A DNA stretch of 64,000 nucleotides from an uncultured bacterium (lineage in GTDB: Bacteria; Patescibacteriota; Microgenomatia; Levybacterales; UBA12049). The notes below the pieces were generated by a model. That model ran no database searches, was not told where the DNA came from, and saw only the letters and a list, made by a program, of their open reading frames with translations. This document shows, one piece after another, positions 39,640 to 64,000 of this stretch. A program made the position numbers and the translations under genes. The stretch is from assembly GCA_963826535.1 (NCBI GenBank), contig CAWGXL010000002.1, positions 96,654-160,653 on the forward strand. Direction: 5' to 3'. Every line of letters begins with the position of its first letter. Position 1 is the stretch's first letter.

Positions 39640-42000
39640 CTATAATCTTGCCCGTTGGGAGATTTCGGCTTCGATTACCTCGGCGTTGCGGCCGAATTTA
39701 AGTCTCGAGAGTTCTTTTATCAGGTCGGCGACTCTTACGTTGCTAAGTTCTTTTTCGCGGCTAATATCTTTAGTGGTATCAAGCGAGAAAGGCGGTACAG
39801 GCTCACCGTTTACCAGGGTTCTCATATAAGCATTATATTTGTCAACATTTATTAAATCTGTTTCATTAAACATCGGTTGGAATTCGCGCTGTAAATAGCT
39901 GGCATCATTGACGCCGACCCGGAATGAAGCAATTGTCCCCACGTTTCCGAAAATTGCGTTTTTAATCTCTTCCTCCATCTGGCCTATGAATTGATTTGCC
40001 ACGATAAGATTGAGGCGGTATTTACGGGCTTCGGAAAGGATTTGGGCAAAATCGGGAGTAGCGAAATTTTGGAATTCGTCAACGTAGAGGTAGAAGTCTC
40101 GTCGTTTGTCCATATCCATATCCTGGCGTGACATAGCGGCAACCAGTATCTTGGGAACTAAGACCAAGCCCAAAAAGCTGGCGTTTTCTTCGCCGATTTT
40201 TCCTTTAGATAAATTAATAAGAAGGATTTTTCTTTCATCCATAACTTTACGGAAATCGAATGAGCTTTTGGATTGGCCAATTATATTTCTTATCATTTTA
40301 TTTGTAACGAAACGGCCGAATTTAGAGACAATATAATCCATAACCTCGGATTTGTGAAAGTCGGATGTTGTCGCGATTTGATCAGTCCAGTAACGGCGGA
40401 TAATAGGATCCTGAACTTTGGGCAATAACTCCTGTACATAGGCTGGATCCGTAAGAATACGTACAACCTCAATAAAGGTGCTTCCCGGCTCGTACATGAC
40501 AGTTAACATAGCATTTCGAACAGCATGTTCAAAACGTGGTCCGATAATACCGGTTTTATTTGGATCGAAGAGCTTATACATTAACCCTATTATAGAGTTG
40601 GTAACAAAATGTTTTTGTTGTTCTGTCTGGGCATCAAGCATATTGAACCCCATCGGCCGCTCTAAATCTGATGGATCAAATAAAATAACTTCTTCGGCGC
40701 GGTTGGGCGGAATTTGGCGCAATACATCTTCTACTAAATCTCCATGTGGATCAACAACGGCTATTCCTTCGCCCGCGTGAATATCTTGCATGATCATACT
40801 TTTAAGGAATTCGCTTTTTCCGGTACCTGTTTTTCCGATGATATACGTATGCCTTCTTCTATCGTCTTGGCTAACATATACTCCACGATTGAGACCACGG
40901 AATGTGCTTTTGCCAAGGTAAAGACCGCTTGTCGGTAGATTGGATGGCGCCGGTGCACGTTTGGATGTCAGCCAGTGAATACCGGGCGTTGTTATACTTT
41001 TATTTGGGAAATGGAAGATGGTTGCGAGTTCCTCACTGGTATGTAATGATGACTGACCCCACAGCGGGAAGTATCTATAAATAAAATCATGCATAAAAAA
41101 ACCTTTCATGAGGTGTTTGTTTTTTCTGAAATAATTTTGACCGGCGTATTGACCGAAAGTATTGATAATATTATTTAAGTGTGATTGTGCTGCTTGTTTT
41201 GTAGTAGAACATACAACAATCCTTATAACAGTATCAAACCCAACTTTGTTGATAGAACCTTCAATGCCCTCAAGCTCTTTCGCATCGGTTTTATATTTAG
41301 CAGTTTCCGGGCTGGCTTCATTTTTTTTAGTTTTACTAATATATCCCCTCCCTGATTTTTTCCAGTGATCACCTGCAGGCCTGACCAATATTTGAATTGT
41401 CGCCCCTTCTCCTTCACCCATTTTTGCAAGGACAGAGGTAATCGATGACAACGGGTCAACCGGCATATCTTTGAAGACTCTTATAGGTATATAGGAACTA
41501 TTTTTCTGATGTAATGAAGCAAAAGCTACTTTTCCATTTTCAGTAAAGATTTGGTATTCAGTTCCTACTACGTTGCCCGCTTTCTGTTTTGCAGTTGGAT
41601 CATTGACCGGCACGACTTCAGCATCCGGATAGGAGCCATTAATTTGCTTTTCTATGAAATCCCGATGTTTATTCGGAACCCAGACATAGAAACGAATTTC
41701 ACCCGGAAGTCCTACGACTTCAAAAGACAGGTGAGGTTGTGTTTTAAAGAATTCGAGCCATCCGATTTCCCTAAGCGATGCAAGTCCCGAAAACATTTGC
41801 TCGGCGGCATCTATTTTGATCTCATTTTCCCGTGGAACTGTTACCTGCAATAGGGTCGAATTTAGTGACTCTTGTTCGCGGTTTCTATTCCGAAACCAGA
41901 TAAGCAATGTATATCCAAATAACCACAAAAACCCTATCGTAACTGAAATAACAATTAAAGTAATAATAACGGTTATAATGAGAGAATTTATATTATCCAT
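39640..42000 (-). CDS. Membrane-anchored P-loop ATPase of the type IV secretion coupling-protein superfamily (TraG/TraD/VirD4-like, with a TraM-recognition-type C-terminal region)
   Basis: N-terminal hydrophobic hairpin. Walker A YIIGKTGTGKSEF. Walker B LYVDEFQNF. C-terminal ...ANQFIGQMEEEIKNAIFGNVGTIASFRVGVNDASYLQREF resembles TraG-D_C. Confidence 0.65.
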   Translation of the reverse strand: MDNINSLIITVIITLIVISVTIGFLWLFGYTLLIWFRNRNREQESLNSTLLQVTVPRENEIKIDAAEQMFSGLASLREIGWLEFFKTQPHLSFEVVGLPGEIRFYVWVPNKHRDFIEKQINGSYPDAEVVPVNDPTAKQKAGNVVGTEYQIFTENGKVAFASLHQKNSSYIPIRVFKDMPVDPLSSITSVLAKMGEGEGATIQILVRPAGDHWKKSGRGYISKTKKNEASPETAKYKTDAKELEGIEGSINKVGFDTVIRIVVCSTTKQAAQSHLNNIINTFGQYAGQNYFRKNKHLMKGFFMHDFIYRYFPLWGQSSLHTSEELATIFHFPNKSITTPGIHWLTSKRAPAPSNLPTSGLYLGKSTFRGLNRGVYVSQDDRRRHTYIIGKTGTGKSEFLKSMIMQDIHAGEGIAVVDPHGDLVEDVLRQIPPNRAEEVILFDPSDLERPMGFNMLDAQTEQQKHFVTNSIIGLMYKLFDPNKTGIIGPRFEHAVRNAMLTVMYEPGSTFIEVVRILTDPAYVQELLPKVQDPIIRRYWTDQIATTSDFHKSEVMDYIVSKFGRFVTNKMIRNIIGQSKSSFDFRKVMDERKILLINLSKGKIGEENASFLGLVLVPKILVAAMSRQDMDMDKRRDFYLYVDEFQNFATPDFAQILSEARKYRLNLIVANQFIGQMEEEIKNAIFGNVGTIASFRVGVNDASYLQREFQPMFNETDLINVDKYNAYMRTLVNGEPVPPFSLDTTKDISREKELSNVRVADLIKELSRLKFGRNAEVIEAEISQRARL

Positions 42001-47398: not shown

Positions 47399-47845
47399 CT
47401 AAATTTTTGTTTTCAATTCCTTACGAAACTTGTTTATAAAATCTCCGGGTTTTAACACTTCAATCGGCTTTAGGTACTCAATAACACCCTTTTTGAAAAA
47501 TCCTTTATCAAAAGAAATAACGAACTGAATACGTGTAGCCCGTTTTGCTGCGGCAATGATTGGCTCATCTTTGAAATTACTAAACGCGTCGTGCGCTTTT
47601 TTAATCTCTTCTTCGGTGGCATCATCGACAATTGTAAGAATGTTTTTACTGAGTATCGCTTCAAATCTGAGCGTTTCTTGCTCATTCCCATCTTTTATAT
47701 TGTTATTTTGCACTTCAAATACGACTTTTTTCGAAATATAGCATTTCAGTTTCCCCCGTATACAGTAGTCTATAATGAACGCAGAGGCTCCCTTTTTGGA
47801 TCTACAGAATGACAGCAGTACCGATGAGTCAAGAAATATATGCAT
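47399..47845 (-). CDS. PIN-domain toxin (VapC-like)
   Basis: MHIFLDSSVLLSF... N-terminal PIN signature with acidic residues. Its start overlaps the stop of the upstream antitoxin gene. Confidence 0.6.
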   Translation of the reverse strand: MHIFLDSSVLLSFCRSKKGASAFIIDYCIRGKLKCYISKKVVFEVQNNNIKDGNEQETLRFEAILSKNILTIVDDATEEEIKKAHDAFSNFKDEPIIAAAKRATRIQFVISFDKGFFKKGVIEYLKPIEVLKPGDFINKFRKELKTKI

Positions 47846-48126
47846 TATGGGAGATCAGACAAACGTTTTTCAACCTCGGAAGCAAGCGGCTCCGGCAGCT
47901 TATCTTCTTTCACCCATTCATCAATTTGATTTTTGCTAAACTTCCTGTAGTCAGCATAATGTGCAACTTTTCTTGATTGAATAATGAGCTTATCTCCCTC
48001 CACTTTCGCTTTTGCCACGTCTCCTTCGTCAAGACCCAATTGTTTACGAAATTGTTTTGGAATAGTGATGACCCCTTTCGGCAAAATCTTGATCCATGTT
48101 TCCCGTGATTTAATTTGTGTTTGCAT
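47845..48126 (-). CDS. AbrB/MazE/SpoVT-family antitoxin
   Basis: KGVITIPKQFRKQLGLDEGDVAKAKVEGDKLII is a swapped-hairpin AbrB-type DNA-binding domain. Length is 93 aa. Confidence 0.6.
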   Translation of the reverse strand: MQTQIKSRETWIKILPKGVITIPKQFRKQLGLDEGDVAKAKVEGDKLIIQSRKVAHYADYRKFSKNQIDEWVKEDKLPEPLASEVEKRLSDLP

Positions 48127-48247: not shown

Positions 48248-48658
48248 TTAGCGGGGCATTGGCTTGTAAATGATTGCTGATTTATTACAAGAAACTTTTA
48301 GATCAATTATTGTAGTTTTATCGTTCCCGGGTTTTGGTGTTATATCGTATTTTTTTATACTTCTTAGATCCCAAAAGGAAAACATTTCTCTATGAGAAAT
48401 GGTTTGCGGTAACTCATTACTTAAATCTGGGTTGTTTATTTTAGTTTCCTCTGTAGCCCTTATCTCTAGAGAACCACCATTTTTAACTATTGCTAGCAAG
48501 CCTCCTATTTTTTCCGGCTCATTTATTGTCGGATGTATGATTTTGCCTTTTTCTTTTGGTCCTGTATTGCAATCAACTAAATCTGATCTATCTCCTTCTG
48601 CACAACCTACAAGTAAAGTTGTTGCTAAGGCAAGCTCTCCTAGTTCTATTCCTCTCAT
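48248..48658 (-). CDS. Putative lipoprotein
   Basis: Signal peptide with a lipobox (LLVGC). Confidence 0.5.
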   Translation of the reverse strand: MRGIELGELALATTLLVGCAEGDRSDLVDCNTGPKEKGKIIHPTINEPEKIGGLLAIVKNGGSLEIRATEETKINNPDLSNELPQTISHREMFSFWDLRSIKKYDITPKPGNDKTTIIDLKVSCNKSAIIYKPMPR

Positions 48659-48707
48659 AGGTGCATTATAACACGTCTTATAAGACTGTCAACGCCTGAG
48701 TTAATTT

Positions 48708-51113
48708 TTAACTTATAAGTAATTGAATATTGCTTGCACCGTCAATTCCCACATTAACATTTTTTCCTCTGGCAATTTCTCCTGTTAATTTTTGCTTGGC
48801 AATCAAGTCTTCAATATTATCTTGAATATAGCGTTTGATCGGTCTGGCCCCGAATTGCGGATCAAACCCTTCCTGGGCAATTTTTTCAATCACCGCCTCG
48901 TCGAAAGTTATTTTGATATCCTGCTTATCCAAGTCCATCGTTATTTTCTTAAGGAGCAAATTTACTACTTTTTTCACGTCTGACGGACTCAAGGGCTTGA
49001 AGGTAATAACACCATCAAAGCGATTTAATAATTCCGGTTTGAATATTTTTTCGGTTTGTAAGTGATCCAAAAGCCTTGTGTGAAATTTTTTATCAAGCAT
49101 AGTTCCTTTATTCACTTCTTGTCTTATAAATTCCGAGCCTGCATTTGAAGTGGCTATGATAAGGGCATTGTCAAAAGACACAGTTACTCCTTTGTTATCG
49201 GTTAACCTTCCATCATCAAAAACTTGTAAAAATAAATTAAGGATTTTAGGATGTGCTTTTTCAAATTCATCAAGCAACACAAGCGACGCAGGCGCGTCTT
49301 TAATTTTATCGGTTAATTCTCCTCTTTCATTTCCTTCGCCAGGTGGAGCTCCCAAAAGTCTTCGCATCCCAATCTCATCTGTATATTCACTCATATCCAG
49401 CCGTATCATCTTGCTCTCTCCTCCGTAATATAGATCCGCTAGCGCTTTAGTTGTTTCGGTTTTACCCACACCGGTTGGACCAAGGAAGAGAAAGGATATT
49501 GGTTTTTGAGACGTTGCCATACCTGAACGCGCTCTGCGCATAGCCTCAGCAATAGCAGTTACAGCTTCTTTCTGGTCAATGATCCGTTCATGTAATTTAT
49601 CTTCTAAATGGAGAAGTACATCTATTTCTTTCTTATCAGGCATGGCAATCGCCACATGCACCGTATCTTCAACATGTTTGACGATATGTTCTGCTAAGAC
49701 TATTTTTTTATTAATATGTTCAAAATTAGGTACAGCCGAAAGAGCAACTTTGTTTGCAACACTTTGGATCAAGGAAACTGCGTTCCCGGGCAGAGATTGA
49801 TCTTGAAAAAAGCGGTCTGCCAACTCTACCGCGCTATCAATTGCACGATAGCTTATGATGACTTTGTTCTTTTCTTCTATATCATGTGTTTTTTTCATAA
49901 CCATTTGGATGGCAGTATTTTTATCCGGTGGCTTGAGTTGTATAACTGTAAATACTTCTTTAAGTGGATTGCGATCCATATAAGATTTGTAATTTCCTGA
50001 AGATATTGTGGCTATTACCGGCAAATTACCGGATTTCAAATATGGCAGAAGCGCGCCGGAAATATCAAGATTGTAAGATGATGCTCCCATGATATTTTGA
50101 AGTTCAGGAATGTATAGAATTACATCAACCGCATGAGAAACTTCGGCGATTATTGTTTGTAAGCGTGTTTCAAGTTCATTTCGATTGCCTACCCCGGCAA
50201 TAAAAGTACCAAGCATAAGTTCTAATACACGGTGGTCATTTAGAAATGAAACAAGGTTGCCCTCAGCGCTGTTATATGCGAATGCTCTCACAATATTTTC
50301 TTTCCCACTGCCTGTATTTCCAACAAGGAGAACATTATTATTTTCAGCTCTTATCAACCCTTCTAATAGAGTCTTAAATTCTATTTCCCGGCCTGTGATC
50401 TGTGGTTTATTTTTATATGCTTCATAAGTGAAATTTTGAGTATATTTTTTGGTTTCAGGTGTCCAACCGGTTGTTAAGAAATCACCAATTCCTCCACCCG
50501 AAAAATGCAAACTGTGTTTTGGCGGGAATTCTTCGTCTGTGTATTCGGATCTTACCCAATAAAGTAAATTATTTAAATCATCTGTTTTTAATTGTTTGGC
50601 AAACAAGAGTTTACTTTCCGATTCGGTAAACATCAGATAAGCTATAAATATATCGAGTGTAGTAACAAATTTTCCTTTGAATGTTTTGGCAACCTCTAGT
50701 GCGCTTGAAGCAAGCGCCTGCGTTGCAAGAGCCTGCATAGCGATGTCCTTTTCGTTCATATTCGTTTTCTGCATAAAGCAGCGCACAGCCGGATATTTAA
50801 ATAATCTCCGAATAATTGCCGGCGTTGTGTTTTCGTTTAAAAACAGCGATAGGGCAGGCATAGTAAATGATTCATAGATTTTTTCACCGTTATTTTTATC
50901 AACTGTAAGTTTTGGGACAATTTTACTTATTTTATATCTGAAGAATATTTCGTTTATAAGAAATAGGTTTAGCAAAAATAAAGGAATTCGCAGAGACTCA
51001 TTTTGTGAAAATAAATATATTATAATTGAAATTAAAAAGAAGAAAATAAGCAAGCGAATTGACCTCACATATGCTTTGCGAAAAAATAAATTTAATTTTG
51101 TGTAAAGTTGCAT
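48708..51113 (-). CDS. Membrane-anchored ClpA/ClpB/ClpC-family AAA+ protein with two nucleotide-binding domains. The first appears catalytically inactivated.
   Basis: N-terminal TM helices. Clp_N-like repeats. D1 Walker A is GNTGSGKE (Thr replaced by Glu) and D1 Walker B is ILYIPELQ (Asp replaced by Pro). D2 is canonical (FLGPTGVGKTE, LVLLDEFEKAHP) with a ClpB_D2-small C-terminal domain. Confidence 0.75.
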   Translation of the reverse strand: MQLYTKLNLFFRKAYVRSIRLLIFFFLISIIIYLFSQNESLRIPLFLLNLFLINEIFFRYKISKIVPKLTVDKNNGEKIYESFTMPALSLFLNENTTPAIIRRLFKYPAVRCFMQKTNMNEKDIAMQALATQALASSALEVAKTFKGKFVTTLDIFIAYLMFTESESKLLFAKQLKTDDLNNLLYWVRSEYTDEEFPPKHSLHFSGGGIGDFLTTGWTPETKKYTQNFTYEAYKNKPQITGREIEFKTLLEGLIRAENNNVLLVGNTGSGKENIVRAFAYNSAEGNLVSFLNDHRVLELMLGTFIAGVGNRNELETRLQTIIAEVSHAVDVILYIPELQNIMGASSYNLDISGALLPYLKSGNLPVIATISSGNYKSYMDRNPLKEVFTVIQLKPPDKNTAIQMVMKKTHDIEEKNKVIISYRAIDSAVELADRFFQDQSLPGNAVSLIQSVANKVALSAVPNFEHINKKIVLAEHIVKHVEDTVHVAIAMPDKKEIDVLLHLEDKLHERIIDQKEAVTAIAEAMRRARSGMATSQKPISFLFLGPTGVGKTETTKALADLYYGGESKMIRLDMSEYTDEIGMRRLLGAPPGEGNERGELTDKIKDAPASLVLLDEFEKAHPKILNLFLQVFDDGRLTDNKGVTVSFDNALIIATSNAGSEFIRQEVNKGTMLDKKFHTRLLDHLQTEKIFKPELLNRFDGVITFKPLSPSDVKKVVNLLLKKITMDLDKQDIKITFDEAVIEKIAQEGFDPQFGARPIKRYIQDNIEDLIAKQKLTGEIARGKNVNVGIDGASNIQLLIS

Positions 51114-51116
51114 AAG

Positions 51117-51446
51117 CTATAAGAATAATATTAATACAGTGGCTATAGGAAATATCAGAAAAGAAAAGATTACTACGAATTCAATTAAAATTAAAATGAG
51201 GAAAATAAAAATATTTGCTATAATCAATCCGGTCTTGACGAGTATTCCGATTGCTCGGGAGAATCCTACTAATCCTTCTCTATATTCATTCTTAAGAGGC
51301 TTAAAGTAAGTTTTAATGCATAGAGAGAGAGCTGATAATTGAATGAAATAATTATTTAATGATACAAAATATACCAACATATCCCGCGGAGCATCTATAT
51401 ACCAAAATTTTAAAAAAGTAAAAGATAACAGCCATGAATTATTCAT
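51117..51446 (-). CDS. Small membrane protein
   Basis: 109 aa with a long hydrophobic C-terminal half. Confidence 0.4.
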   Translation of the reverse strand: MNNSWLLSFTFLKFWYIDAPRDMLVYFVSLNNYFIQLSALSLCIKTYFKPLKNEYREGLVGFSRAIGILVKTGLIIANIFIFLILILIEFVVIFSFLIFPIATVLILFL

Positions 51447-51582
51447 AGGTCTTTTTAAGTATATACCCCTCAGCTTTCAAAATTCAAATTAAAAATACCT
51501 GAGAGTTACCCGGCTTTAGCTCCATGCGGATTAGCATAAAAATTTCAGGTATAATTTACAACTGAAGGTAGTTTTTAAGAAG

Positions 51583-53193
51583 CTATTTTAGCGAGCCTAA
51601 AAGTTGTTGAAGTAGTGCAAGAATCTTTGCTAGAAGCTCCATAATCATTTGTATAATGCCTGATTCCCCGCCGCCGCCTTTACGGGAAGTTTTTTGCAAT
51701 GAACTTGGCTCTGCTGAGCTTGGTTCTATTTTCTCATTAGGAACCGATGATGGTTGTTGACCGCTATCACCTGGGGATTTAAGCTCTGGTTGACCGTCTG
51801 GTGATTTAAGCGTTTGTTTATCGACTGGTTTTGTAGGAACATCCGTGGTACAGGGATCACCACTCAGACAGTAAAAGTTGGTGGGGGAAATGTAGGGCGA
51901 AGATGGGTTGGGACCTTGAGGGGAAGTAGGGTTGTTACTCTGTGTGGGAAGAGCTGCAGTTTCTGCCACTATTGCCTTGCCCGCGTTTATACGACCATAT
52001 TGCCAGTTTTGTCCTGTTCCGGTAATTTTGTCTGCAGTTTCAAACAACCGTTGTACAACAGATGTTGCAGAAGTTCCGTATGAAGATGACCAGATAAGTC
52101 CCACAACGCCTGCGACCATTGGTGTTGACATGGATGTTCCGCTGAGGTAATCATAGTTTGTCTTTAAACCAGGTTTTAATTGCTGTAGCTTATAAGAGCT
52201 TATTGGAAGTGTTGAATAAATAACACTACCCGGAGCTGCAACGTCAACCCATGTCCCATAAGTTGAGAATGAAGACAACGCGTCTTTATTATCGGTTGAG
52301 GCAACCGCGATAACATTTTCGCAGTGAGCGGGGTAGTTAACCGTTTTGTTACCAAAGTTTCCTGCCGCAGCAGCCATAATTACACCTTTGTCCCAGGCAT
52401 ATTTCACAGCTTCACATTTTATATCTTGTCCGCTAGTGCCTCCCAGGCTCATATTTATTACTTTAGCTCCATTATCTGCTGCCCAGATAATCCCTTCCGC
52501 AACTGCTGAATCAGGACCGTAACCTTCATCATCTAAGATTTTCCCGATTATTAGATTACACCCAGGACACACGCCGGCAGTACCCACGGAATTATTAGTC
52601 GCAGCTGCAATAATGCCGGCGATATGTGTTCCATGACCGAACCCGTCGTCAATTCCGGACCCGCTAAAATCTTTCTTGCCGGTAATTTTCGCGGAAAGTT
52701 CAGGCTGATTGGAGTCAATACCGGTATCAAGGACAGCGATTAAAATACCATTGCCGAGGGTAACATCCCAGGCTGGTTCTACGTTAATATCGGCATGCAG
52801 CGATCCCGCTTCCCCCTTAATGGTTTGTCCTGTATTACTCAACCCCCATTGCTGATTATAATCAGGATCATTTGGAACCAAAAATGCTTGATTTAGATAA
52901 TCAGGCTCTGCCACTTCTATTAAATTATCTTTTTTCAACTGTTCAAGTATGGCATCTCCCTGGCCCTCCGGCACTTGGATTACAAGTCTATTGATCGCAT
53001 CAATCCGTTTAATAATCCGGGCATTATATTTATTTAAGTGTTCATTTATTGATTGCTCGGATACTCCTGGCTTATATTTTATAATTATTTGATCTTCAAC
53101 CCGTGGGCTGGAAGGGGAGGGAGGTAATGGTATTGAAGGCACTGTGCTCGATGGAGGTTCAATTACCTTTTCCTCTTGCCTTAATACAGCCAT
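51583..53193 (-). CDS. Subtilisin-like serine protease (peptidase S8) with an I9-type propeptide, a Pro/Ser-rich linker and a C-terminal hydrophobic tail
   Basis: Catalytic triad motifs VLDTGID, HGTHIAGIIAA, GTSMSTPMVAGV. An in-frame hydrophobic segment KKYILIFVVAAFLLLIIL lies immediately upstream of the first canonical ATG. The true start may therefore be upstream and non-canonical. Confidence 0.8.
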   Translation of the reverse strand: MAVLRQEEKVIEPPSSTVPSIPLPPSPSSPRVEDQIIIKYKPGVSEQSINEHLNKYNARIIKRIDAINRLVIQVPEGQGDAILEQLKKDNLIEVAEPDYLNQAFLVPNDPDYNQQWGLSNTGQTIKGEAGSLHADINVEPAWDVTLGNGILIAVLDTGIDSNQPELSAKITGKKDFSGSGIDDGFGHGTHIAGIIAAATNNSVGTAGVCPGCNLIIGKILDDEGYGPDSAVAEGIIWAADNGAKVINMSLGGTSGQDIKCEAVKYAWDKGVIMAAAAGNFGNKTVNYPAHCENVIAVASTDNKDALSSFSTYGTWVDVAAPGSVIYSTLPISSYKLQQLKPGLKTNYDYLSGTSMSTPMVAGVVGLIWSSSYGTSATSVVQRLFETADKITGTGQNWQYGRINAGKAIVAETAALPTQSNNPTSPQGPNPSSPYISPTNFYCLSGDPCTTDVPTKPVDKQTLKSPDGQPELKSPGDSGQQPSSVPNEKIEPSSAEPSSLQKTSRKGGGGESGIIQMIMELLAKILALLQQLLGSLK

Positions 53194-53718
53194 TAGAATT
53201 ATGAGAAGTAGAAACGCTGCAACAACGAAAATAAGAATATATTTTTTGGAGGTTTTAGATTTTTGCCCATCACCCGGTGTAGTACTGTCAGGTACCTTGC
53301 TCTGTAGGTTACCCTCTGGTACCTGGCTTTGGTCTTGTGATTGTGGTTTTTCTTGAGTATTTATTTCTTTTATAGTTAATTATTAGTGTAATATACATTT
53401 TTAATCCTTGTCAACAGGAAGACTGTTAGCTGACAAAGTGCTCGATCAGTCACGGTTTTCAATCGTGGTTAAAACTACATATATTATAGTATCGAAAAAA
53501 TCATCAAACAATTTTACCGTATAATTGAATTTTTTAAGGCTTTTGAGTGCGACAACACAGACTTACATATCAAAGAAATTGCATTTATTAAAGTCTCAAT
53601 AAAAATCCGGTTGCAAAGCGGAATGTAGAAGATATAATATATAAATCTAAAACGAACGCGACCCATAACGGAAATTTGTGCGCTCAGGCAGAATCGCTAT
53701 TCTAAAAGATAATAAAAT

Positions 53719-59807: not shown

Positions 59808-60376
59808 TTAAATTTTCAAAGTTTTTTTTACAACGTTAATTCCTTCGACTAATCTATCAACATCCTCCTTAGTATTATATAAATACAGAGATGCTCTCGC
59901 TGTAGCCGGTACACCTAGAGCTTGCATAGTAATTTGTGCGCAGTGATGGCCGGAGCGGATTGCAATATTTTGTCCATCGAGAATTTGAGCGATATCATGC
60001 GCATGGGCGTTTGTTATATTAAAAGAAAAAATACCGAGCCGGTCTTTATATGTTTTTGGACCGTATAATTTTAAGAAAGGTAAATTTTTTAATTTTTCAA
60101 GTGCATATTTAGTTAGTTCATTTTCATAACTAGCGATTTTTTCCCAACCAATTTTTTTTAAATATGAAATTGAGGCTGACAAACCTACAACCCCTTCAAG
60201 ATTACCGGTTCCTGCTTCAAATTTATCAGGAAGATCAGCCCAAGTTGCTTTATTTTTGGTTACAGTTTTTATCATATGACTACCGACATGAAGCGGATCC
60301 ATTGTTTCGAGCAAATCTTCCTTTGCCCATAGCACACCGACCCCCGTTGGCCCAAGCATTTTGTGAGCGGAGAAGG
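59808..60376 (-). CDS. sufS: Cysteine desulfurase SufS, C-terminal half only. The 5' part is truncated at the low-GC/high-GC junction.
   Basis: ...AFSAHKMLGPTGVGVLWAKEDLLETMDPL...RSGHHCAQ.... The PLP-Lys motif (FS-A/G-HK) is the first recognisable element. Everything N-terminal in the ORF track is translated from unrelated high-GC DNA. Confidence 0.75.
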
Positions 60377-61328
60377 CAAGACGTTCTTCCTGGGGTATGC
60401 CGCGGTGCAGGCGGGAGGCGACCCCTCGCTGCTGTTCGATGACCTCGTCCGCAACGCGCCGGGATTCTCGAAGCCCTGGCTGCAAGCCGCCTTCGTGCTG
60501 CTCGTGGTCGGGTATGGAACGAAGATGGGATTGGCCCCCATGCATACGTGGAAGCCCGACGCGTATGGCGAGGCGCCGGGGATCGTGGGCGCCCTGATGG
60601 CCGGCGCCCTGACGAGCTGCGCCTTCCTCGCTCTTTCCCGGGTCTTTCACGTTCTGACCGCCGCGGGAGAGGGAGCATTTGCTGGGCGCATCCTGGTCGT
60701 GCTCGGGCTCTTCTCCATGGCCGTCGCCGGCGTGTTCACGGTCCGTCAGCGAGACCTGAAGCGCATGCTGGCGTATTCGAGCGTCGAGCACATGGGAATT
60801 CTGGCGTTCGGTCTCGGCCTCGGCGGCAGCGGTATCTTCGGCGCCTTCCTGCACATGCTGAACAACGGGATCATCAAGGGCGTGATGTTCCTCTCGGCCG
60901 GGAACATCCACCGGGCCTACGACAGCAAGTACGTCGAGGACGTGTCGGGGGCGCTCCGGCGCGTCCCGTGGTCCGGCGCCTTGTTCCTGGCCGGGTTCTT
61001 CGCGGTGACCGGCTCTCCGCCCTTTGGCCCGTTCGTCAGCGAGCTGTCCATTCTCAATGCCGCGATGGAACAGCATCGCTGGGGCGTCGCGGCGGCCATG
61101 CTGGGTCTGCTTCTCGTCGTGTTCATGGGGATGGGGGTGACGGTGCTCGGAGTCGTCCAGGGCGAGGCGGGGCCGAGCTCGAGCCAGTCCCGATTCCGGG
61201 ACGGCGTTCTCAACACATTGCCGGCGCTGGTGCTCCTGGCCATGTCGTTCGGCATGGGAGTGGCCATGCCCGACGCGATCCAGTCGATGGTCCGGGAGGC
61301 CGCGGACTACGTCGGAGGCCGGCGATGA
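60363..61328 (+). CDS. NuoL/NuoM/NuoN- or HyfB/HycC-like proton-translocating membrane subunit. C-terminal ~320 aa only, 5'-truncated at the junction.
   Basis: MGLAPMHTWKPDAYGEAPGIVGALMAG and KRMLAYSSVEHMGI are complex-I antiporter-subunit signatures. High GC. Its stop overlaps the next gene's ATG (ATGA). Confidence 0.7.
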   Translation: MSGEGKTFFLGYAAVQAGGDPSLLFDDLVRNAPGFSKPWLQAAFVLLVVGYGTKMGLAPMHTWKPDAYGEAPGIVGALMAGALTSCAFLALSRVFHVLTAAGEGAFAGRILVVLGLFSMAVAGVFTVRQRDLKRMLAYSSVEHMGILAFGLGLGGSGIFGAFLHMLNNGIIKGVMFLSAGNIHRAYDSKYVEDVSGALRRVPWSGALFLAGFFAVTGSPPFGPFVSELSILNAAMEQHRWGVAAAMLGLLLVVFMGMGVTVLGVVQGEAGPSSSQSRFRDGVLNTLPALVLLAMSFGMGVAMPDAIQSMVREAADYVGGRR

Positions 61329-62860
61329 GCCTCCGGGCGGGGCGCGCGGTCGAGAATGGCGAAGCCGTCCCGGTGGGCGAAGTCCCCGAGCTGTCGAACG
61401 AGGAGTTCCGGCAGGTCGTGATCGAGGCCTGCCGTCGGGAGCGGCGAGTGTCGGCGCTGTTCGGCGACTCGAGAGACGGCGAGGGTGGCCGCGATCTCGT
61501 GGAGCTCTACGCGGTACTGGCCGAGGAGGACACGGCGTCGCTGCTCCTCGCCCGGACCCGGATCGAGGCCGACGTCTTCGAGTCGCTGACGCCGGATTGC
61601 CCGCAGGTGCACCTGTTCGAGCGCGAGATTGCCGAGCAGTACGGGTGCGTGCCGCGGGGGCACCCGTGGCTGAAGCCCGTTCGGTTCCATGCCCCGTACC
61701 GTCGCCCGGCCTCGGGCGTCGAGACGGGGCCCAGGCCGCCCGTGGTCGGAGTGATGGACTACTACCGGGTCGAGGGCGACGAGGTGCACGAGGTGGCGGT
61801 CGGGCCCGTGCACGCGGGGATCATCGAGCCGGGCCACTTTCGCTTCCAGTGCCACGGGGAGACGGTGTTCCACCTCGAGATCTCGCTCGGCTACCAGCAC
61901 CGGGGCATCGAGCGGCACCTCGTCGGCGGTCCGACGCCCAGGACCGTGCACTACATGGAGACGCTCGCCGGCGACACGACGCTCGGTCACGCGACCGCGT
62001 ACTGCCACGCCGTGGAAGCCCTGGCCCGGATCCACGCCCCGGCGAAGGCGCAGTTCATTCGCGGCATCGCGCTCGAGCTGGAGCGACTGGCGAACCACGT
62101 CGGCGATCTCGGTGCTCTCGCGGGCGATGTCGGCTATCTGCCCACGGCCTCGTTCTGCGGGCGCATCCGCGGCGACTACCTGAACATGAGCGCGCTCTTG
62201 TGCGGGAATCGATTCGGCCGGGACCTGACTCGCGTGGGCGGCGTGCGCTTCGACATCGACGAAGCGGTGCGAGAGAGCCTTGTCACGCGGCTGGACGCCG
62301 CGGAGCGGGACACCGCGAGTGCCGTGAACCTGCTCTGGGAGTCGTCGTCGGTGATGTCGCGGTTCGAGGATGCCGGGAGCATCTCGGAGGAGGTCGCGCG
62401 GGAGATCGGTCTCGTGGGCCCGGCCGCCCGCGCCAGTGGCCTGGGACGCGACGTGCGAACCGACTTTCCCAAGGGCGTCTACCGCTACAGCCACGTGCCG
62501 ATGTGCACGTGGAGCACCGGTGATGTCTTTGCGCGGGCGTACGTCCGCTGGCTCGAGATCCAGAACTCGATCCGCTTTATCCGCGAGGAGCTTCAGGAGC
62601 TGCCGGAAGGCGCGCTCCAGGTGAGTGTGCCCATCTTGATGCCCGAGAGCATCGTGGTGTCGCTCGTCGAGGGCTGGCGTGGGGAGATCTGCCACGTGGC
62701 GATCACCGACGAGGCGGGGAAGTTCCGCCGCTACAAGGTCGTCGACCCCTCGTTCCACAACTGGTCCGGTCTCGCGCTCGCCCTCCGCGGACAGGAGATC
62801 TCGGACTTTCCGTTGTGCAACAAGAGCTTCAACCTGTCCTACGCGGGCTTCGACCTGTGA
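61325..62860 (+). CDS. NuoC-NuoD fusion / HycE-like large subunit of a group-4 hydrogenase-related complex, apparently lacking the [NiFe] cysteine ligands
   Basis: NuoC-like FEREIAEQYGCVPRGHPWLKPV, then GPVHAGIIEPGHFRF. At the L1 position it reads ETLAGDTTLGHATAYCHAVE (no CxxC). At the C-terminus it reads VDPSFHNWSG (no DPCxxC). Start taken at the ATG at 61325 rather than the track's 60548. Confidence 0.7.
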   Translation: MSLRAGRAVENGEAVPVGEVPELSNEEFRQVVIEACRRERRVSALFGDSRDGEGGRDLVELYAVLAEEDTASLLLARTRIEADVFESLTPDCPQVHLFEREIAEQYGCVPRGHPWLKPVRFHAPYRRPASGVETGPRPPVVGVMDYYRVEGDEVHEVAVGPVHAGIIEPGHFRFQCHGETVFHLEISLGYQHRGIERHLVGGPTPRTVHYMETLAGDTTLGHATAYCHAVEALARIHAPAKAQFIRGIALELERLANHVGDLGALAGDVGYLPTASFCGRIRGDYLNMSALLCGNRFGRDLTRVGGVRFDIDEAVRESLVTRLDAAERDTASAVNLLWESSSVMSRFEDAGSISEEVAREIGLVGPAARASGLGRDVRTDFPKGVYRYSHVPMCTWSTGDVFARAYVRWLEIQNSIRFIREELQELPEGALQVSVPILMPESIVVSLVEGWRGEICHVAITDEAGKFRRYKVVDPSFHNWSGLALALRGQEISDFPLCNKSFNLSYAGFDL

Positions 62861-62901
62861 TTCGTCTCCTTCGAGCTCGAGTGCTTCAGGGTCATCGGAC
62901 C

Positions 62902-63729
62902 ATGCCGTTTCCGGACGGGCCTCCGCCGGAGCTGCCCGCGCGGTTTCGCGGCCGGCCCGAGATCGACGCCGGCCTGTGCCGGTCCGGCTGCCGCGCGTGC
63001 GCGGAGGCCTGTCCGACCCAGGCGATCACGGGCGGGGAGTCGGCTCAGATCGACCTCGGCCGCTGCCTCTTCTGCACCGACTGCGTGGAGGCCTGTCCCG
63101 AGGGCGCGATCTCCTTCACCAATGACTATCGTCTCGCGGTGCGCCGGCGCGAGGACCTCGTGGTCTGCGGCAATCAGGATGCGCTCCCGCTCGCCGCGGA
63201 GCTGGGTGCGGAGCTGCATCGCCTGCTCGGGCGGTCGCTCAAGCTGCGCCAGGTATCGGCGGGCGGCTGCAATGGGTGCGAGCTCGATACCAATGTCCTC
63301 AACACGGTGGGCTGGGACCTCGGGCGGTTCGGGGTGCAATTCGTGGCGTCTCCTCGACACGCGGACGGCCTGCTCATCACCGGCGCGGTCTCCCAGAACA
63401 TGAAGCTCGCGCTCCAGAAGACCTACGATGCGATCCCCGCGCCGAAGATCGTCATCGCCGTGGGGGCATGCGCCGTCGGCGGCGGCCCGTTCGCCGGCCA
63501 CGCGGAGGTGAACGACGGGGCCACCGATCTGCTGCCGATCGACCTGCTGATACCGGGCTGTCCGCCGCACCCCCTCACGATCCTCGACGGCATCCTCCGG
63601 TTGCTGGGTCGAGTGGACGGCGGGAAGCCCCGGTCGAGTCCGGCGATCGAGCAACCCGGGCAGTCAGCGTGGCGAGCCAGGCCGGGTGGTGGCACGCCGC
63701 CCGGCCGTGTGGGCGAACAGCGGCCGTGA
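62902..63729 (+). CDS. Fusion of a 2x[4Fe-4S] ferredoxin (HycF/NuoI-like) with a NuoB/HycG-like small subunit
   Basis: CRSGCRACAEACP and CLFCTDCVEACP cluster motifs. Then GGCNGCE...VASPRHADGLLITGAVS...VGACAVGGGPF...IPGCPPHP (N2-cluster-type ligands). An alternative upstream start at 62815 is possible. Confidence 0.7.
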   Translation: MPFPDGPPPELPARFRGRPEIDAGLCRSGCRACAEACPTQAITGGESAQIDLGRCLFCTDCVEACPEGAISFTNDYRLAVRRREDLVVCGNQDALPLAAELGAELHRLLGRSLKLRQVSAGGCNGCELDTNVLNTVGWDLGRFGVQFVASPRHADGLLITGAVSQNMKLALQKTYDAIPAPKIVIAVGACAVGGGPFAGHAEVNDGATDLLPIDLLIPGCPPHPLTILDGILRLLGRVDGGKPRSSPAIEQPGQSAWRARPGGGTPPGRVGEQRP

Positions 63730-64000
63730 TCTGGCCCGTCCGTCGCCGGTCCTCACGCCACGCGCCAAGCGTGACCCGCGGGCCGGCCCTAGGCCTGCGG
63801 CCTGGCGATTCCTTGCAGCCCTAAATTTTAGGGCTGCGGGATACGCGGACGGCGCCGCGCAACCTATTCAGAATTGGAGGTCATCCGCCTGTCCAGCGTA
63901 AAGTATGGCGCGAGTGAGGAAAACGCCCGCACCATGAACCTGCTCCAGACCTGCATACCTGCCGACGCGCGCAGCGTCTGCCGTCTTACGGAGCCGGATA

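Follow-up and report, generated by a model that had tools for sequence, protein, structure and literature searches.

A gene on the minus strand of the 64,000-nucleotide stretch of DNA analysed here (the window) encodes an 801-residue ATPase that appears from its sequence to be a membrane-anchored relative of the protein-unfolding ATPases ClpA, ClpB and ClpC with one dead ring. Immediately upstream lies a gene for a 109-residue membrane protein, and the conservation of the pair marks ATPase and partner as a two-gene module of ultra-small (CPR) bacteria. The function that we infer, and on which we are evenly divided, is that of a membrane-tethered remodeller powered by its D2 ring and working with the small membrane partner, probably without canonical threading. 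The coordinates of all features are collected in Table 1.

Table 1. Features of the ATPase gene, the partner gene and the region upstream, ordered along the direction of transcription.
Feature	Coordinates	Strand	Basis
Promoter-like site, TTGAAT, 18 nt, TATACT; 12 nt upstream of partner gene	51458..51487	(-)	Weak consensus match
Conserved 109-aa membrane protein gene, obligate partner	51117..51446	(-)	ORF, conserved upstream of ATPase
Membrane-anchored Clp/Hsp100-like ATPase gene	48708..51113	(-)	ORF, 801 aa; Pfam, NCBIfam and PDB matches; AlphaFold; Foldseek
Predicted membrane hairpin, two hydrophobic helices and ~6-residue loop, residues 21-58	50940..51053	(-)	Hydropathy, charge, conservation, AlphaFold
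All-helical N-domain, residues 67-195	50529..50915	(-)	AlphaFold; hhalign to Clp_N of CPR paralogs
D1 AAA+ module, catalytically degenerate, residues 239-468	49710..50399	(-)	ClpC alignment; without PF00004 match
D1 Walker A, GNTGSGKE; glycines and Lys retained, Thr to Glu	50298..50321	(-)	B. subtilis ClpC alignment, family conservation
D1 pore loop, AGVGNRNELE for AGxKYRGEFE; tyrosine gone	50169..50198	(-)	ClpC alignment, family conservation
D1 Walker B, VILYIPE; Asp to Pro	50103..50123	(-)	B. subtilis ClpC alignment, family conservation
D1 arginine-finger site, KEVF for ERRF; two arginines gone	49950..49961	(-)	ClpC alignment, family conservation
D2 AAA+ and D2-small, residues 500-790; GPTGVGKT, LLDE, TSN, NR, GAR intact	48744..49616	(-)	Pfam, family conservation
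D2 pore loop, GAPPGEGNERGEL for GxPPGYVGYxEGGxL; two residues shorter, non-aromatic	49314..49352	(-)	ClpC alignment
Site of the ClpP-docking loop of ClpA/ClpC/ClpX; (I/L/V)G(F/L) absent	49032..49145	(-)	Alignment, family check

The earlier note, made from the sequence alone, had described the open reading frame at 48708-51113 as a Clp-type protein with two rings, and the open reading frame call, the Pfam domains and the PDB matches all bear this out. Pfam recognizes AAA_lid_9 (2.9e-08), AAA_2 (8.6e-47) and ClpB_D2-small (1.9e-23) and finds no protease domain, while the closest solved relatives by sequence are ClpC chains (PDB phmmer, 371 bits, 1e-109), with ClpB and ClpA also among the matches. 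ClpC, ClpB and ClpA are likewise the top Foldseek matches of the AlphaFold model (mean pLDDT 83; best E-values 1e-50 to 7e-50). The marks of a two-module class-I Clp/Hsp100 protein (D1 and D2 folds, AAA_lid_9, an AAA_2-type D2 and ClpB_D2-small) are all present, and the full order of parts is transmembrane (TM) hairpin, reduced N-domain, degenerate D1, active D2 and D2-small. The family nevertheless scores far under the cut-off of every curated Clp family model: 417.6 bits against 993.15 for the ClpA model TIGR02639 (one continuous alignment, residues 118-789), 450.1 bits against the equivalog cut-off of 1232.1 for the ClpB model TIGR03346 (best stretch 469-792) and 387.9 bits against 884.95 for the ClpV/TssH model; no T6SS genes occur among the conserved neighbours. 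Conservation was assessed in 120 homologs and in a further 74 members, taken from species-representative genomes (GTDB). A profile of the N-terminal part of the ATPase matched 14 entries in a set of 5.8 billion proteins, mostly short or partial sequences that make this count unusable for family size.

The catalytic lesions lie in the first ring. GSGKE at Walker A and IPELQ at Walker B had been recognized earlier as substitutions in D1, and they hold up in the alignment to B. subtilis ClpC and in the 120 and 74 members. Residue by residue, Walker A reads GNTGSGKE against GEPGVGKT and Walker B reads VILYIPELQ against IILFIDELH; a misalignment, with the true motifs elsewhere, is ruled out by the HMMER alignment to ClpC. 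Position 272 in Walker A is Glu in 118 of 120 homologs and position 336 in Walker B is Pro in 119 of 120, confirming that the degenerate D1 is conserved. Among the 74 further members, the Walker B Asp position holds Pro in 68 and Asp in none, GK[ST] is still present in the D1 of 17, and the D1 arginine fingers are missing from every one. By this pattern of conservation, the Thr-to-Glu and Asp-to-Pro changes are family traits and not errors. PF00004 does not match D1 of the ATPase, compared with 82.7 bits for the canonical paralog. The mean majority-residue frequency is 0.62 in D1 versus 0.75 in D2, and D1 thus remains under constraint. The D1 lid helix runs to about 458 and the first D2 element begins at 469, a gap of about 10 residues, and neither the alignment nor the AlphaFold model contains a coiled-coil M-domain after D1.

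D1 keeps the P-loop GxxGxGK. We propose that it would serve as a non-hydrolysing scaffold or assembly ring and may still bind nucleotide as D2 of NSF does. A ring used chiefly to assemble the complex or to bind nucleotide is familiar from NSF D2, p97/Cdc48 D1 and Pex1/Pex6 D1 (cf. PMC9265785, PMC6160233), and the ATPase would share with these proteins the principle that one ring assembles and the other works. They differ from it in belonging to the classical AAA clade, in having an active ring with aromatic pore loops that threads substrate, and in not being integral membrane proteins.

The N-terminal TM helices suspected in the earlier note are upheld by hydropathy, by their register across homologs and by the AlphaFold hairpin. 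Both hydrophobic segments (~21-36 and ~43-58) exceed 1.6 on the family-averaged Kyte-Doolittle scale and, like the start codon, are in register across homologs, which rules out a TM region produced by a wrong start codon. AlphaFold places hairpin helices at residues 14-36 and 42-62 (pLDDT about 90); in the second helix E55 is invariant and N49 nearly invariant among the closer homologs. Clusters of Lys and Arg lie on both cytoplasmic sides, a positive-inside charge pattern, and the predicted N-in/C-in helical hairpin would hold the ATPase at the cytoplasmic membrane face. In FtsH and Msp1/ATAD1, too, an N-terminal TM anchor fixes a hexameric AAA+ ring to the cytoplasmic side of a membrane (PMC7018516). 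These proteins share the anchor with the ATPase but have a single ring with prominent aromatic pore loops for gripping substrate and, in FtsH, an M41 protease, none of which the ATPase possesses.

Behind the hairpin, the AlphaFold model contains about eight short helices (residues 79-190, pLDDT about 90). The Clp_N-like repeats claimed for this region are weakly supported: Clp_N (PF02861) gives no Pfam match at E<=0.01 and searching PDB sequences with an N-terminal profile returns none, but hhalign pairs the N-domain with the Clp_N region of CPR paralogs over 84 columns (78% probability, E 1.9e-5). The N-domain is probably a divergent, truncated relative of Clp_N, and in sequence and model together a reduced Clp_N-like domain would separate the D1 ring from the membrane.

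The ATPase is preceded so closely by the 109-residue gene that the partner's stop codon lies 3 nt ahead of the ATPase ATG. The partner is 51-52% identical to the open reading frame directly upstream of the ATPase homologs in two other loci, L001 and L003; a third, L002, also contains a related open reading frame that had not been called. When 80 loci were found via the partner, the ATPase was the next gene in about 76 and the other four ended at contig edges; the two genes thus occur together in about 76 of 76 testable CPR loci, mostly of Levybacteria, with a distance from partner stop to ATPase start of -4 to about +10 nt (overlapping or near-abutting). We read the two genes, as the best account of this spacing and linkage, as a translationally coupled two-gene module, and their linkage suggests that the products may interact physically. 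Promoter-like sites such as the one upstream of the partner gene do not exceed the chance count in the scanned region.

The partner family comprises 67 clusters among 1.84 billion representatives, always as stand-alone proteins of about 105-150 residues, and by sequence it appears to be without relatives elsewhere. Pfam (including a relaxed scan with 38 members), NCBIfam and PADLOC return nothing for it. AlphaFold predicts, at pLDDT 90, a helix at 4-37, a conserved loop at 46-56 and a helix at 57-108, a fold for which the best PDB match by Foldseek reaches only E 3.3.

These conservation data effectively refute the explanation that the ATPase is a decaying paralog or an annotation artefact, with the D1 lesions due to pseudogenisation and the TM region to a wrong start, which we regard as extremely improbable. 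Several catalytic lesions do fall in D1, and the protein sequence in the window has no name in databases, as such an explanation would have it; yet the open reading frame is intact, the lesions at P336 and E272 are themselves conserved, D2 is invariant, the N-terminus stays in register from the same start and the gene is coupled to a conserved partner in well over 70 species-level genomes.

D2 had been called canonical, which is correct for its catalytic motifs and incorrect for its pore loop. Walker A, Walker B, sensor 1, the arginine finger and sensor 2 are invariant across the family, with the arginine finger R698 and the sensor-2 R757 conserved in essentially all members, and D2 would be the sole motor. 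In the pore loop, GYVGY has become GE-G with loss of the tyrosine, and about 16 of 74 members (about a fifth) have the loop deleted outright. Threading by Clp/Hsp100 proteins relies on aromatic pore-loop residues, KYR in D1 and GYVG in D2. None of the 74 members has Tyr at the D1 or the D2 position, and no substitute conserved aromatic was found in either loop. Since both pore-1 loops are without aromatics and part of the family can do without the D2 loop, processive threading of polypeptides is most likely absent. Non-aromatic loops might still grip particular substrates, and the conservation of the charged GE-G-ERGELT in most members suggests that the D2 loop retains some role. The region that would hold the ClpP-docking loop, residues 657-694, reads NAGSEFIRQEVNKGTMLDKKFHTRLLDHLQTEKIFKPE; a check for this loop, proposed earlier, found (I/L/V)-G-(F/L) absent from the query and from all 74 GTDB members. 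In 2 of the 120 homologs a fortuitous LGF lies within a helix. The loss of the D1 arginine fingers and of the pore tyrosines in D1 and D2 had been overlooked, as had the 109-residue neighbour.

The pore loops bear on the proposal of a membrane-anchored unfoldase with one dead ring. The tether and the dead D1 stand; a threading unfoldase does not follow, with the pore aromatics absent. A true membrane-anchored unfoldase or extractase, whose central pore would use non-canonical loops to draw membrane or secretory proteins out of the membrane or across it and hand them to FtsH, the neighbouring S8 protease pathway or chaperones, strikes us as rather unlikely, as does its export version, in which the partner would be a channel as in PTEX (HSP101 with the EXP2 pore). 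Such a machine would profit from the fully competent motor that the D2 sequence indicates, from a modelled order of TM anchor, N-domain and D1 that would face the pore entrance to the membrane, from the chaperone genes nearby and from a signal-anchored S8 protease, which is encoded just upstream of the module in 8 of the 80 loci as well as in the window. Against it, aromatics are missing from the pore loops of both rings in 74 of 74 members, on top of the deletions in D2, the ATPase has neither a ClpP-docking loop nor a protease domain, and the S8 protease is extracytoplasmic and not a conserved neighbour. The roles suggested earlier, in quality control of the envelope or in extracting secreted substrates, are on the same grounds unsupported as far as they involve threading. 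A role in proteostasis is still plausible; many loci have genes for a canonical Clp paralog and for DnaJ, DnaK and GrpE a short way upstream.

As noted earlier, no ClpP or adaptor gene lies within the flanking ~5 kb. Contrary to the earlier statement, the S8 protease gene is not a direct flank, since the partner gene intervenes, and recurrence of 8/80 for the protease and 0/80 for the lipoprotein gene rules out both as defining components. The lipoprotein gene has a perfect sigma-70 promoter of its own. Across the 80 loci, a canonical Clp paralog lies within 4 kb upstream of the module in about 34, with DnaJ in 23, DnaK in 18 and GrpE in 8. A setting next to the canonical paralog and dnaK-dnaJ-grpE points to a part in the proteostasis of the membrane or envelope; it may also reflect nothing more than descent by tandem duplication. 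The ATPase family probably arose by duplication of the CPR Clp gene. It counts against our reading that the window contains no CIRCE heat-shock operator (TTAGCACTC-N9-GAGTGCTAA, up to 3 mismatches). Anti-phage defence was rejected: PADLOC gives generic D2-type matches only for the ATPase (DolB, PDC-M37B) and none for the partner, and synteny with the core genes nusA, infB and dnaK argues against a defence island.

The neighbouring paralog raises the further explanation that the ATPase is a membrane tether or regulator of the canonical Clp protein, forming mixed hexamers or docking so as to localise or modulate a disaggregase, with its own D1 and pore loops dispensable. We hold this to be improbable. 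Proximity in those roughly 34 loci and the absence of an M-domain and an IGF loop from both paralogs fit it well enough, but the two are merely 34-43% identical, no canonical paralog is adjacent in the window or in L001 and L003, the invariant partner is the 109-residue protein and not the paralog, and strict conservation of the D2 catalytic site speaks for an ATPase that acts on its own.

For the D2-powered remodeller, ATP cycles of D2 would remodel or gate a membrane-embedded partner, for which the 109-residue protein is the prime candidate; contact could involve polar residues that are conserved within the membrane, N49 and E55 of the ATPase and K71, D78 and E89 of the partner. With ClpA and ClpC the ATPase shares two AAA+ modules (AAA_lid_9, AAA_2, D2-small) and a helical N-domain, and with ClpA the absence of a long M-domain. 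It differs from both in lacking the (I/L/V)G(F/L) loop, the D1 Walker B Asp, the arginine fingers, the pore Tyr and the D2 GYVG Tyr and in carrying an N-terminal TM hairpin. ClpB and Hsp104 resemble it in having no ClpP loop, a highly similar D2 and genes near dnaK-dnaJ-grpE, next to which clpB is found in some bacteria. Unlike them, the ATPase has one active ring, no pore tyrosines and a membrane anchor, and it is without the coiled-coil M-domain, which in ClpB is the DnaK-coupling element.

Closer in manner of working may be Torsin, a Clp/Hsp100-related AAA+ protein found in the ER and nuclear envelope of eukaryotes. Torsin lacks aromatic pore loops, is attached to the membrane through a hydrophobic domain at its N-terminus and depends on the membrane-spanning cofactors LAP1/LULL1 (PMC5425593). 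The missing aromatic pore loops and the N-terminal hydrophobic anchor are shared, by analogy only and without implying homology, as may be a dedicated membrane partner, for which gene linkage points to the 109-residue protein. Torsin differs in being a single AAA+ module without an arginine finger, which its cofactor supplies, whereas D2 of the ATPase has its own arginine finger and sensor 2 and so should need no cofactor for catalysis. Furthermore, the Torsin cofactor has a degenerate AAA+ fold and the partner here is a small helical membrane protein; Torsin faces the lumen and the ATPase, as predicted, the cytoplasm. On our best reading of this analogy, the ATPase in its membrane-tethered, partner-assisted and probably non-threading mode would stand nearer to Torsin than to ClpB. 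That the module applies the Torsin principle in bacteria, with threading abandoned and ATP used by D2 to remodel or gate a dedicated small membrane cofactor, and would hence be an undescribed two-component membrane machine specific to Microgenomatia/Levybacteria (CPR), we suggest only tentatively, with more doubt than belief.

Clp/Hsp100 proteins are textbook threading machines and, to our knowledge, the characterised bacterial members are all soluble and all have pore-loop tyrosines. We found no relevant description in the literature of a membrane-anchored or CPR-specific Clp or of the two-gene module, and a paper on CPR protein families mentions neither Clp nor AAA. A family that has conserved the D2 motor and gained a hairpin and a partner would reveal other uses of the Clp/Hsp100 scaffold, and it may offer a simple prokaryotic model of non-threading, cofactor-dependent AAA+ action, a matter still unsettled for Torsins. 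The orphan family of 109-residue membrane proteins gains a testable context, and CPR bacteria, whose cell biology is poorly understood, would gain a lineage-specific, envelope-associated machine.

A Pfam scan of the ATPase matched three domains (listed with other features in the table) and did not match PF00004 to the first of its two ATPase modules. The nearest NCBIfam models were ClpB (450 bits), ClpA (418 bits, aligning as a single stretch over residues 118-789), ClpK, ClpV, and ClpG, and the ATPase falls far under all of the curated cut-offs (885-1900 bits). The closest solved proteins are ClpC, ClpB, and ClpA, which were again the Foldseek matches to the full-length AlphaFold model (mean pLDDT 83). 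Based on these scores, solved relatives, and structural matches, the ATPase is a class-I Clp/Hsp100 relative and the equivalog of no named member. The M-domain is absent, with only about 10 residues between the lid of the first ring (D1) and the second ring (D2), and, unlike ClpA, ClpC, and ClpX, the corresponding region of TM-Clp contains no (I/L/V)G(F/L) ClpP-docking motif. As the earlier note had stated, no ClpP or adaptor gene was found near the ATPase gene.

Positions of features in the window (nucleotides, strand) and in the encoded proteins (residues)
Feature	Position	Description
TM-Clp ATPase gene	48708..51113 (-)	801 aa
Hydrophobic segments	ATPase residues about 21-36 and 43-58	conserved in homologs
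Helical domain	ATPase residues 79-190	follows the hairpin
AAA_lid_9	ATPase residues 398-467	Pfam
AAA_2	ATPase residues 538-700	Pfam
ClpB_D2-small	ATPase residues 708-788	Pfam
Partner gene	51117..51446 (-)	109 aa
S8 protease gene	51583-53370 (-)	first ATG at 53193
Sigma-70 consensus promoter	48665-48692 (-)	TTGACA, 16 nt, TG-TATAAT
Lipoprotein-like ORF	48248..48658	
MazE/AbrB-type antitoxin and PIN-domain toxin genes	47399-48126 (-)	93 and 148 aa, one-base overlap
VirD4/TraG/TrwB-type gene	39640-42000 (-)	786 aa
Class-V aminotransferase ORF	59808..61076 (-)	Pfam matches C-terminal half only
High-GC part	~60300-64000	GC 0.62-0.75, from about 0.35-0.40

The N-terminal transmembrane region proposed in the earlier note is borne out by conservation, hydropathy, and structure prediction. 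An artefact of a wrong start codon is ruled out, since homologs begin at the same position, keep tail residues K6, R12, R17, and R20, and share both hydrophobic segments. In the second segment N49 is nearly invariant and E55 is invariant among closer homologs, and a K61/K64 cluster follows. Both segments exceed the Kyte-Doolittle threshold of 1.6 in family-averaged hydropathy and are modeled by AlphaFold as a helical hairpin (pLDDT about 90). An N-in/C-in topology is suggested by the positive charges at either end and the 6-residue loop between the segments; possibly, the hairpin is re-entrant instead of fully spanning. The helical domain that comes next appears to resemble Clp_N weakly. It has no Pfam Clp_N match and its family profile finds no PDB sequence; profile-profile comparison with the Clp_N region of paralogs from CPR genomes (ultra-small bacteria, Patescibacteria) gave 78% probability (E 1.9e-5, 84 columns).

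A residue-by-residue alignment of D1 to B. subtilis ClpC confirmed the reported substitutions in Walker A (GNTGSGKE versus GEPGVGKT in ClpC) and Walker B (VILYIPELQ versus IILFIDELH). Both arginine fingers (LKEVF versus LERRF) and the pore tyrosine (AGVGNRNELE versus AGTKYRGEFE) are also gone, and D1 is therefore more damaged than had been noted. These lesions are kept as family characters. E272 is conserved in 118 and P336 in 119 of 120 homologs (57-100% identity), G265, G268, and G270 occur in all 120, and position 271 holds K in 114 of them and R in the other six. Of a further 74 members, recovered from species-representative genomes, 68 have Pro at the Walker B Asp position and none has Asp; all 74 lack both the arginine fingers and the pore tyrosine, and at the Walker A position 45 carry E and 17 carry S or T. 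D1 remains constrained, as its mean majority-residue frequency is 0.62 versus 0.75 for D2, and pseudogenisation of TM-Clp is excluded by conservation. Because D1 keeps its P-loop without the Walker B Asp or the arginine fingers, we infer a ring that may bind nucleotide and would not hydrolyze it.

The description of D2 as canonical holds for its catalytic motifs, which are invariant (Walker A GPTGVGKT, Walker B LLDE, sensor 1 TSN, arginine finger NR698, sensor 2 GAR757), but not for its pore loop, which reads GAPPGE-G-NERGEL versus GxPPGYVGYxEGGxL in ClpC and the canonical CPR paralogs. No member has a tyrosine in this loop, about 16/74 have lost the loop entirely, and no other conserved aromatic residue was found in the pore-loop segments.

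The S8 protease gene had been described as flanking the ATPase gene; between the two, however, lies the overlooked partner ORF, whose stop codon is 3 nt before the ATPase ATG. The partner, a small membrane protein, is obligate and translationally coupled to the ATPase. It is directly upstream of the ATPase homolog in 3/3 loci fetched via the ATPase (called in two, uncalled in one). When species-representative genomes were queried with the partner only, 139 loci were recovered and the best 80 kept; the TM-Clp gene follows immediately in all ~76 with enough downstream DNA, the other four being ended by contig ends. The ATPase start falls about -4 to +10 nt from the partner stop, with a 4-nt overlap frequent. 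The partner has no match in Pfam, NCBIfam, or PADLOC and no PDB fold match, and when 1.84 billion representative proteins were searched exhaustively with its profile, only 67 clusters emerged. Their members are stand-alone and about 105-150 aa long, the exceptions being truncated fragments and a single weak match to a repetitive 423-aa protein. AlphaFold (pLDDT 90) predicts a helix (residues 4-37), a conserved, putatively cytoplasmic loop (46-56, FKPLKNEYREGL), and a long helix (57-108) whose last ~45 residues are strongly hydrophobic, with conserved K71, D78, and E89.

The ATPase is a membrane-tethered two-ring Hsp100 relative in which, as read from the alignments, D1 is stripped of catalytic and pore elements and D2 is catalytically intact without a pore tyrosine. 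D1 would then serve for scaffolding or assembly, leaving D2 as the sole motor, and the ATPase would more likely remodel or gate the membrane partner or a complex associated with it. The earlier note's unfoldase or extractase is a live rival, albeit one we hold to be rather unlikely. Canonical threading is unlikely, since processive unfolding by Clp/Hsp100 proteins depends critically on aromatic pore loops (PMC5425593) and some members of the family dispense with the D2 loop. The closest working analogy is Torsin with LAP1/LULL1. Torsin shares with TM-Clp the relation to Clp, the absence of aromatic pore loops, and membrane attachment through an N-terminal hydrophobic region, and it acts together with transmembrane cofactors (PMC5425593); an important difference is that TM-Clp D2 keeps its own arginine finger.

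Among the best 80 of the 139 partner-bearing loci, a canonical Clp paralog lies within 4 kb upstream in about 34, with DnaJ (23/80), DnaK (18/80), and GrpE (8/80) also upstream and NusA downstream (42/80). The paralog carries the motifs GVGKT, FIDEIH, ERRF, and GYVGY and has 34-43% identity to the TM form; that TM-Clp tethers it to the membrane seems improbable, more so than an unfoldase or extractase. The paralog is itself unusual (L002:1223-5506, a locus fetched via the ATPase, and upstream parts of ~34 others), lacking the M-domain and IGF loop and having SHR instead of KYR in its D1 pore loop; the L002 copy, 1427 aa in all, is extended at its C terminus by ~560 repeat-rich residues. Of the flanking genes previously noted, the S8 protease is directly upstream of the module in 8/80 loci, as in the window, whereas the lipoprotein-like ORF recurs in 0/80. 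The latter is marked as a separate transcription unit by a perfect sigma-70 promoter of its own, which sits immediately past the ATPase stop codon. Record titles of pair-bearing loci are mostly Levybacteria/Levyibacteriota, with some Gottesmanbacteria, Parcubacteria, and 'Patescibacteria group'. One set is titled 'uncultured Gammaproteobacteria', a label we read as a placeholder, given that one record so titled, L020, and L002, which bears a CPR-type pair, are one and the same contig. Two comparison loci from one MAG (L007 and L008, JAHIGH01 contigs 9 and 207) both carry the partner gene, one behind an S8 protease, and may represent two module copies per genome or strain heterogeneity.

Several other features of the window were observed. 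Ahead of its first ATG, the S8 frame has about 60 more open codons with no ATG, GTG, or TTG among them. This stretch codes for a signal-anchor helix (KKYILIFVVAAFLLLIILMAVL) resembling the ones found in the S8 homologs of L008 and L004, another comparison locus; the gene probably uses a non-canonical start codon and its product is probably membrane-anchored or secreted. The ATPase gene is followed, about 0.6 kb downstream, by the antitoxin and toxin genes, which form a predicted VapBC-like pair. The coupling-protein domains of the VirD4/TraG/TrwB-type protein mark it as an ATPase of type IV secretion or conjugation, here encoded by a CPR genome. GC content jumps abruptly at about 60300, inside the aminotransferase ORF. 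The high-GC part, with genes for NuoD-like and NuoB/4Fe-4S-like proteins, looks to be the product of chimeric assembly or binning, or of concatenation, and not native CPR sequence.

Neither the TM-Clp family nor its partner was found described in a full-text literature search or the CPR protein-family paper, and databases name the homologs only 'ATP-dependent Clp protease ATP-binding subunit ClpA/ClpC'. The scaffold is that of Hsp100, but the combination of gains and losses (membrane hairpin, dead D1, and dedicated membrane cofactor, without pore tyrosines, M-domain, or ClpP loop) is unmatched in any named subfamily. The module, confined to uncultivated lineages, is a surprise for AAA+ specialists and is experimentally tractable.
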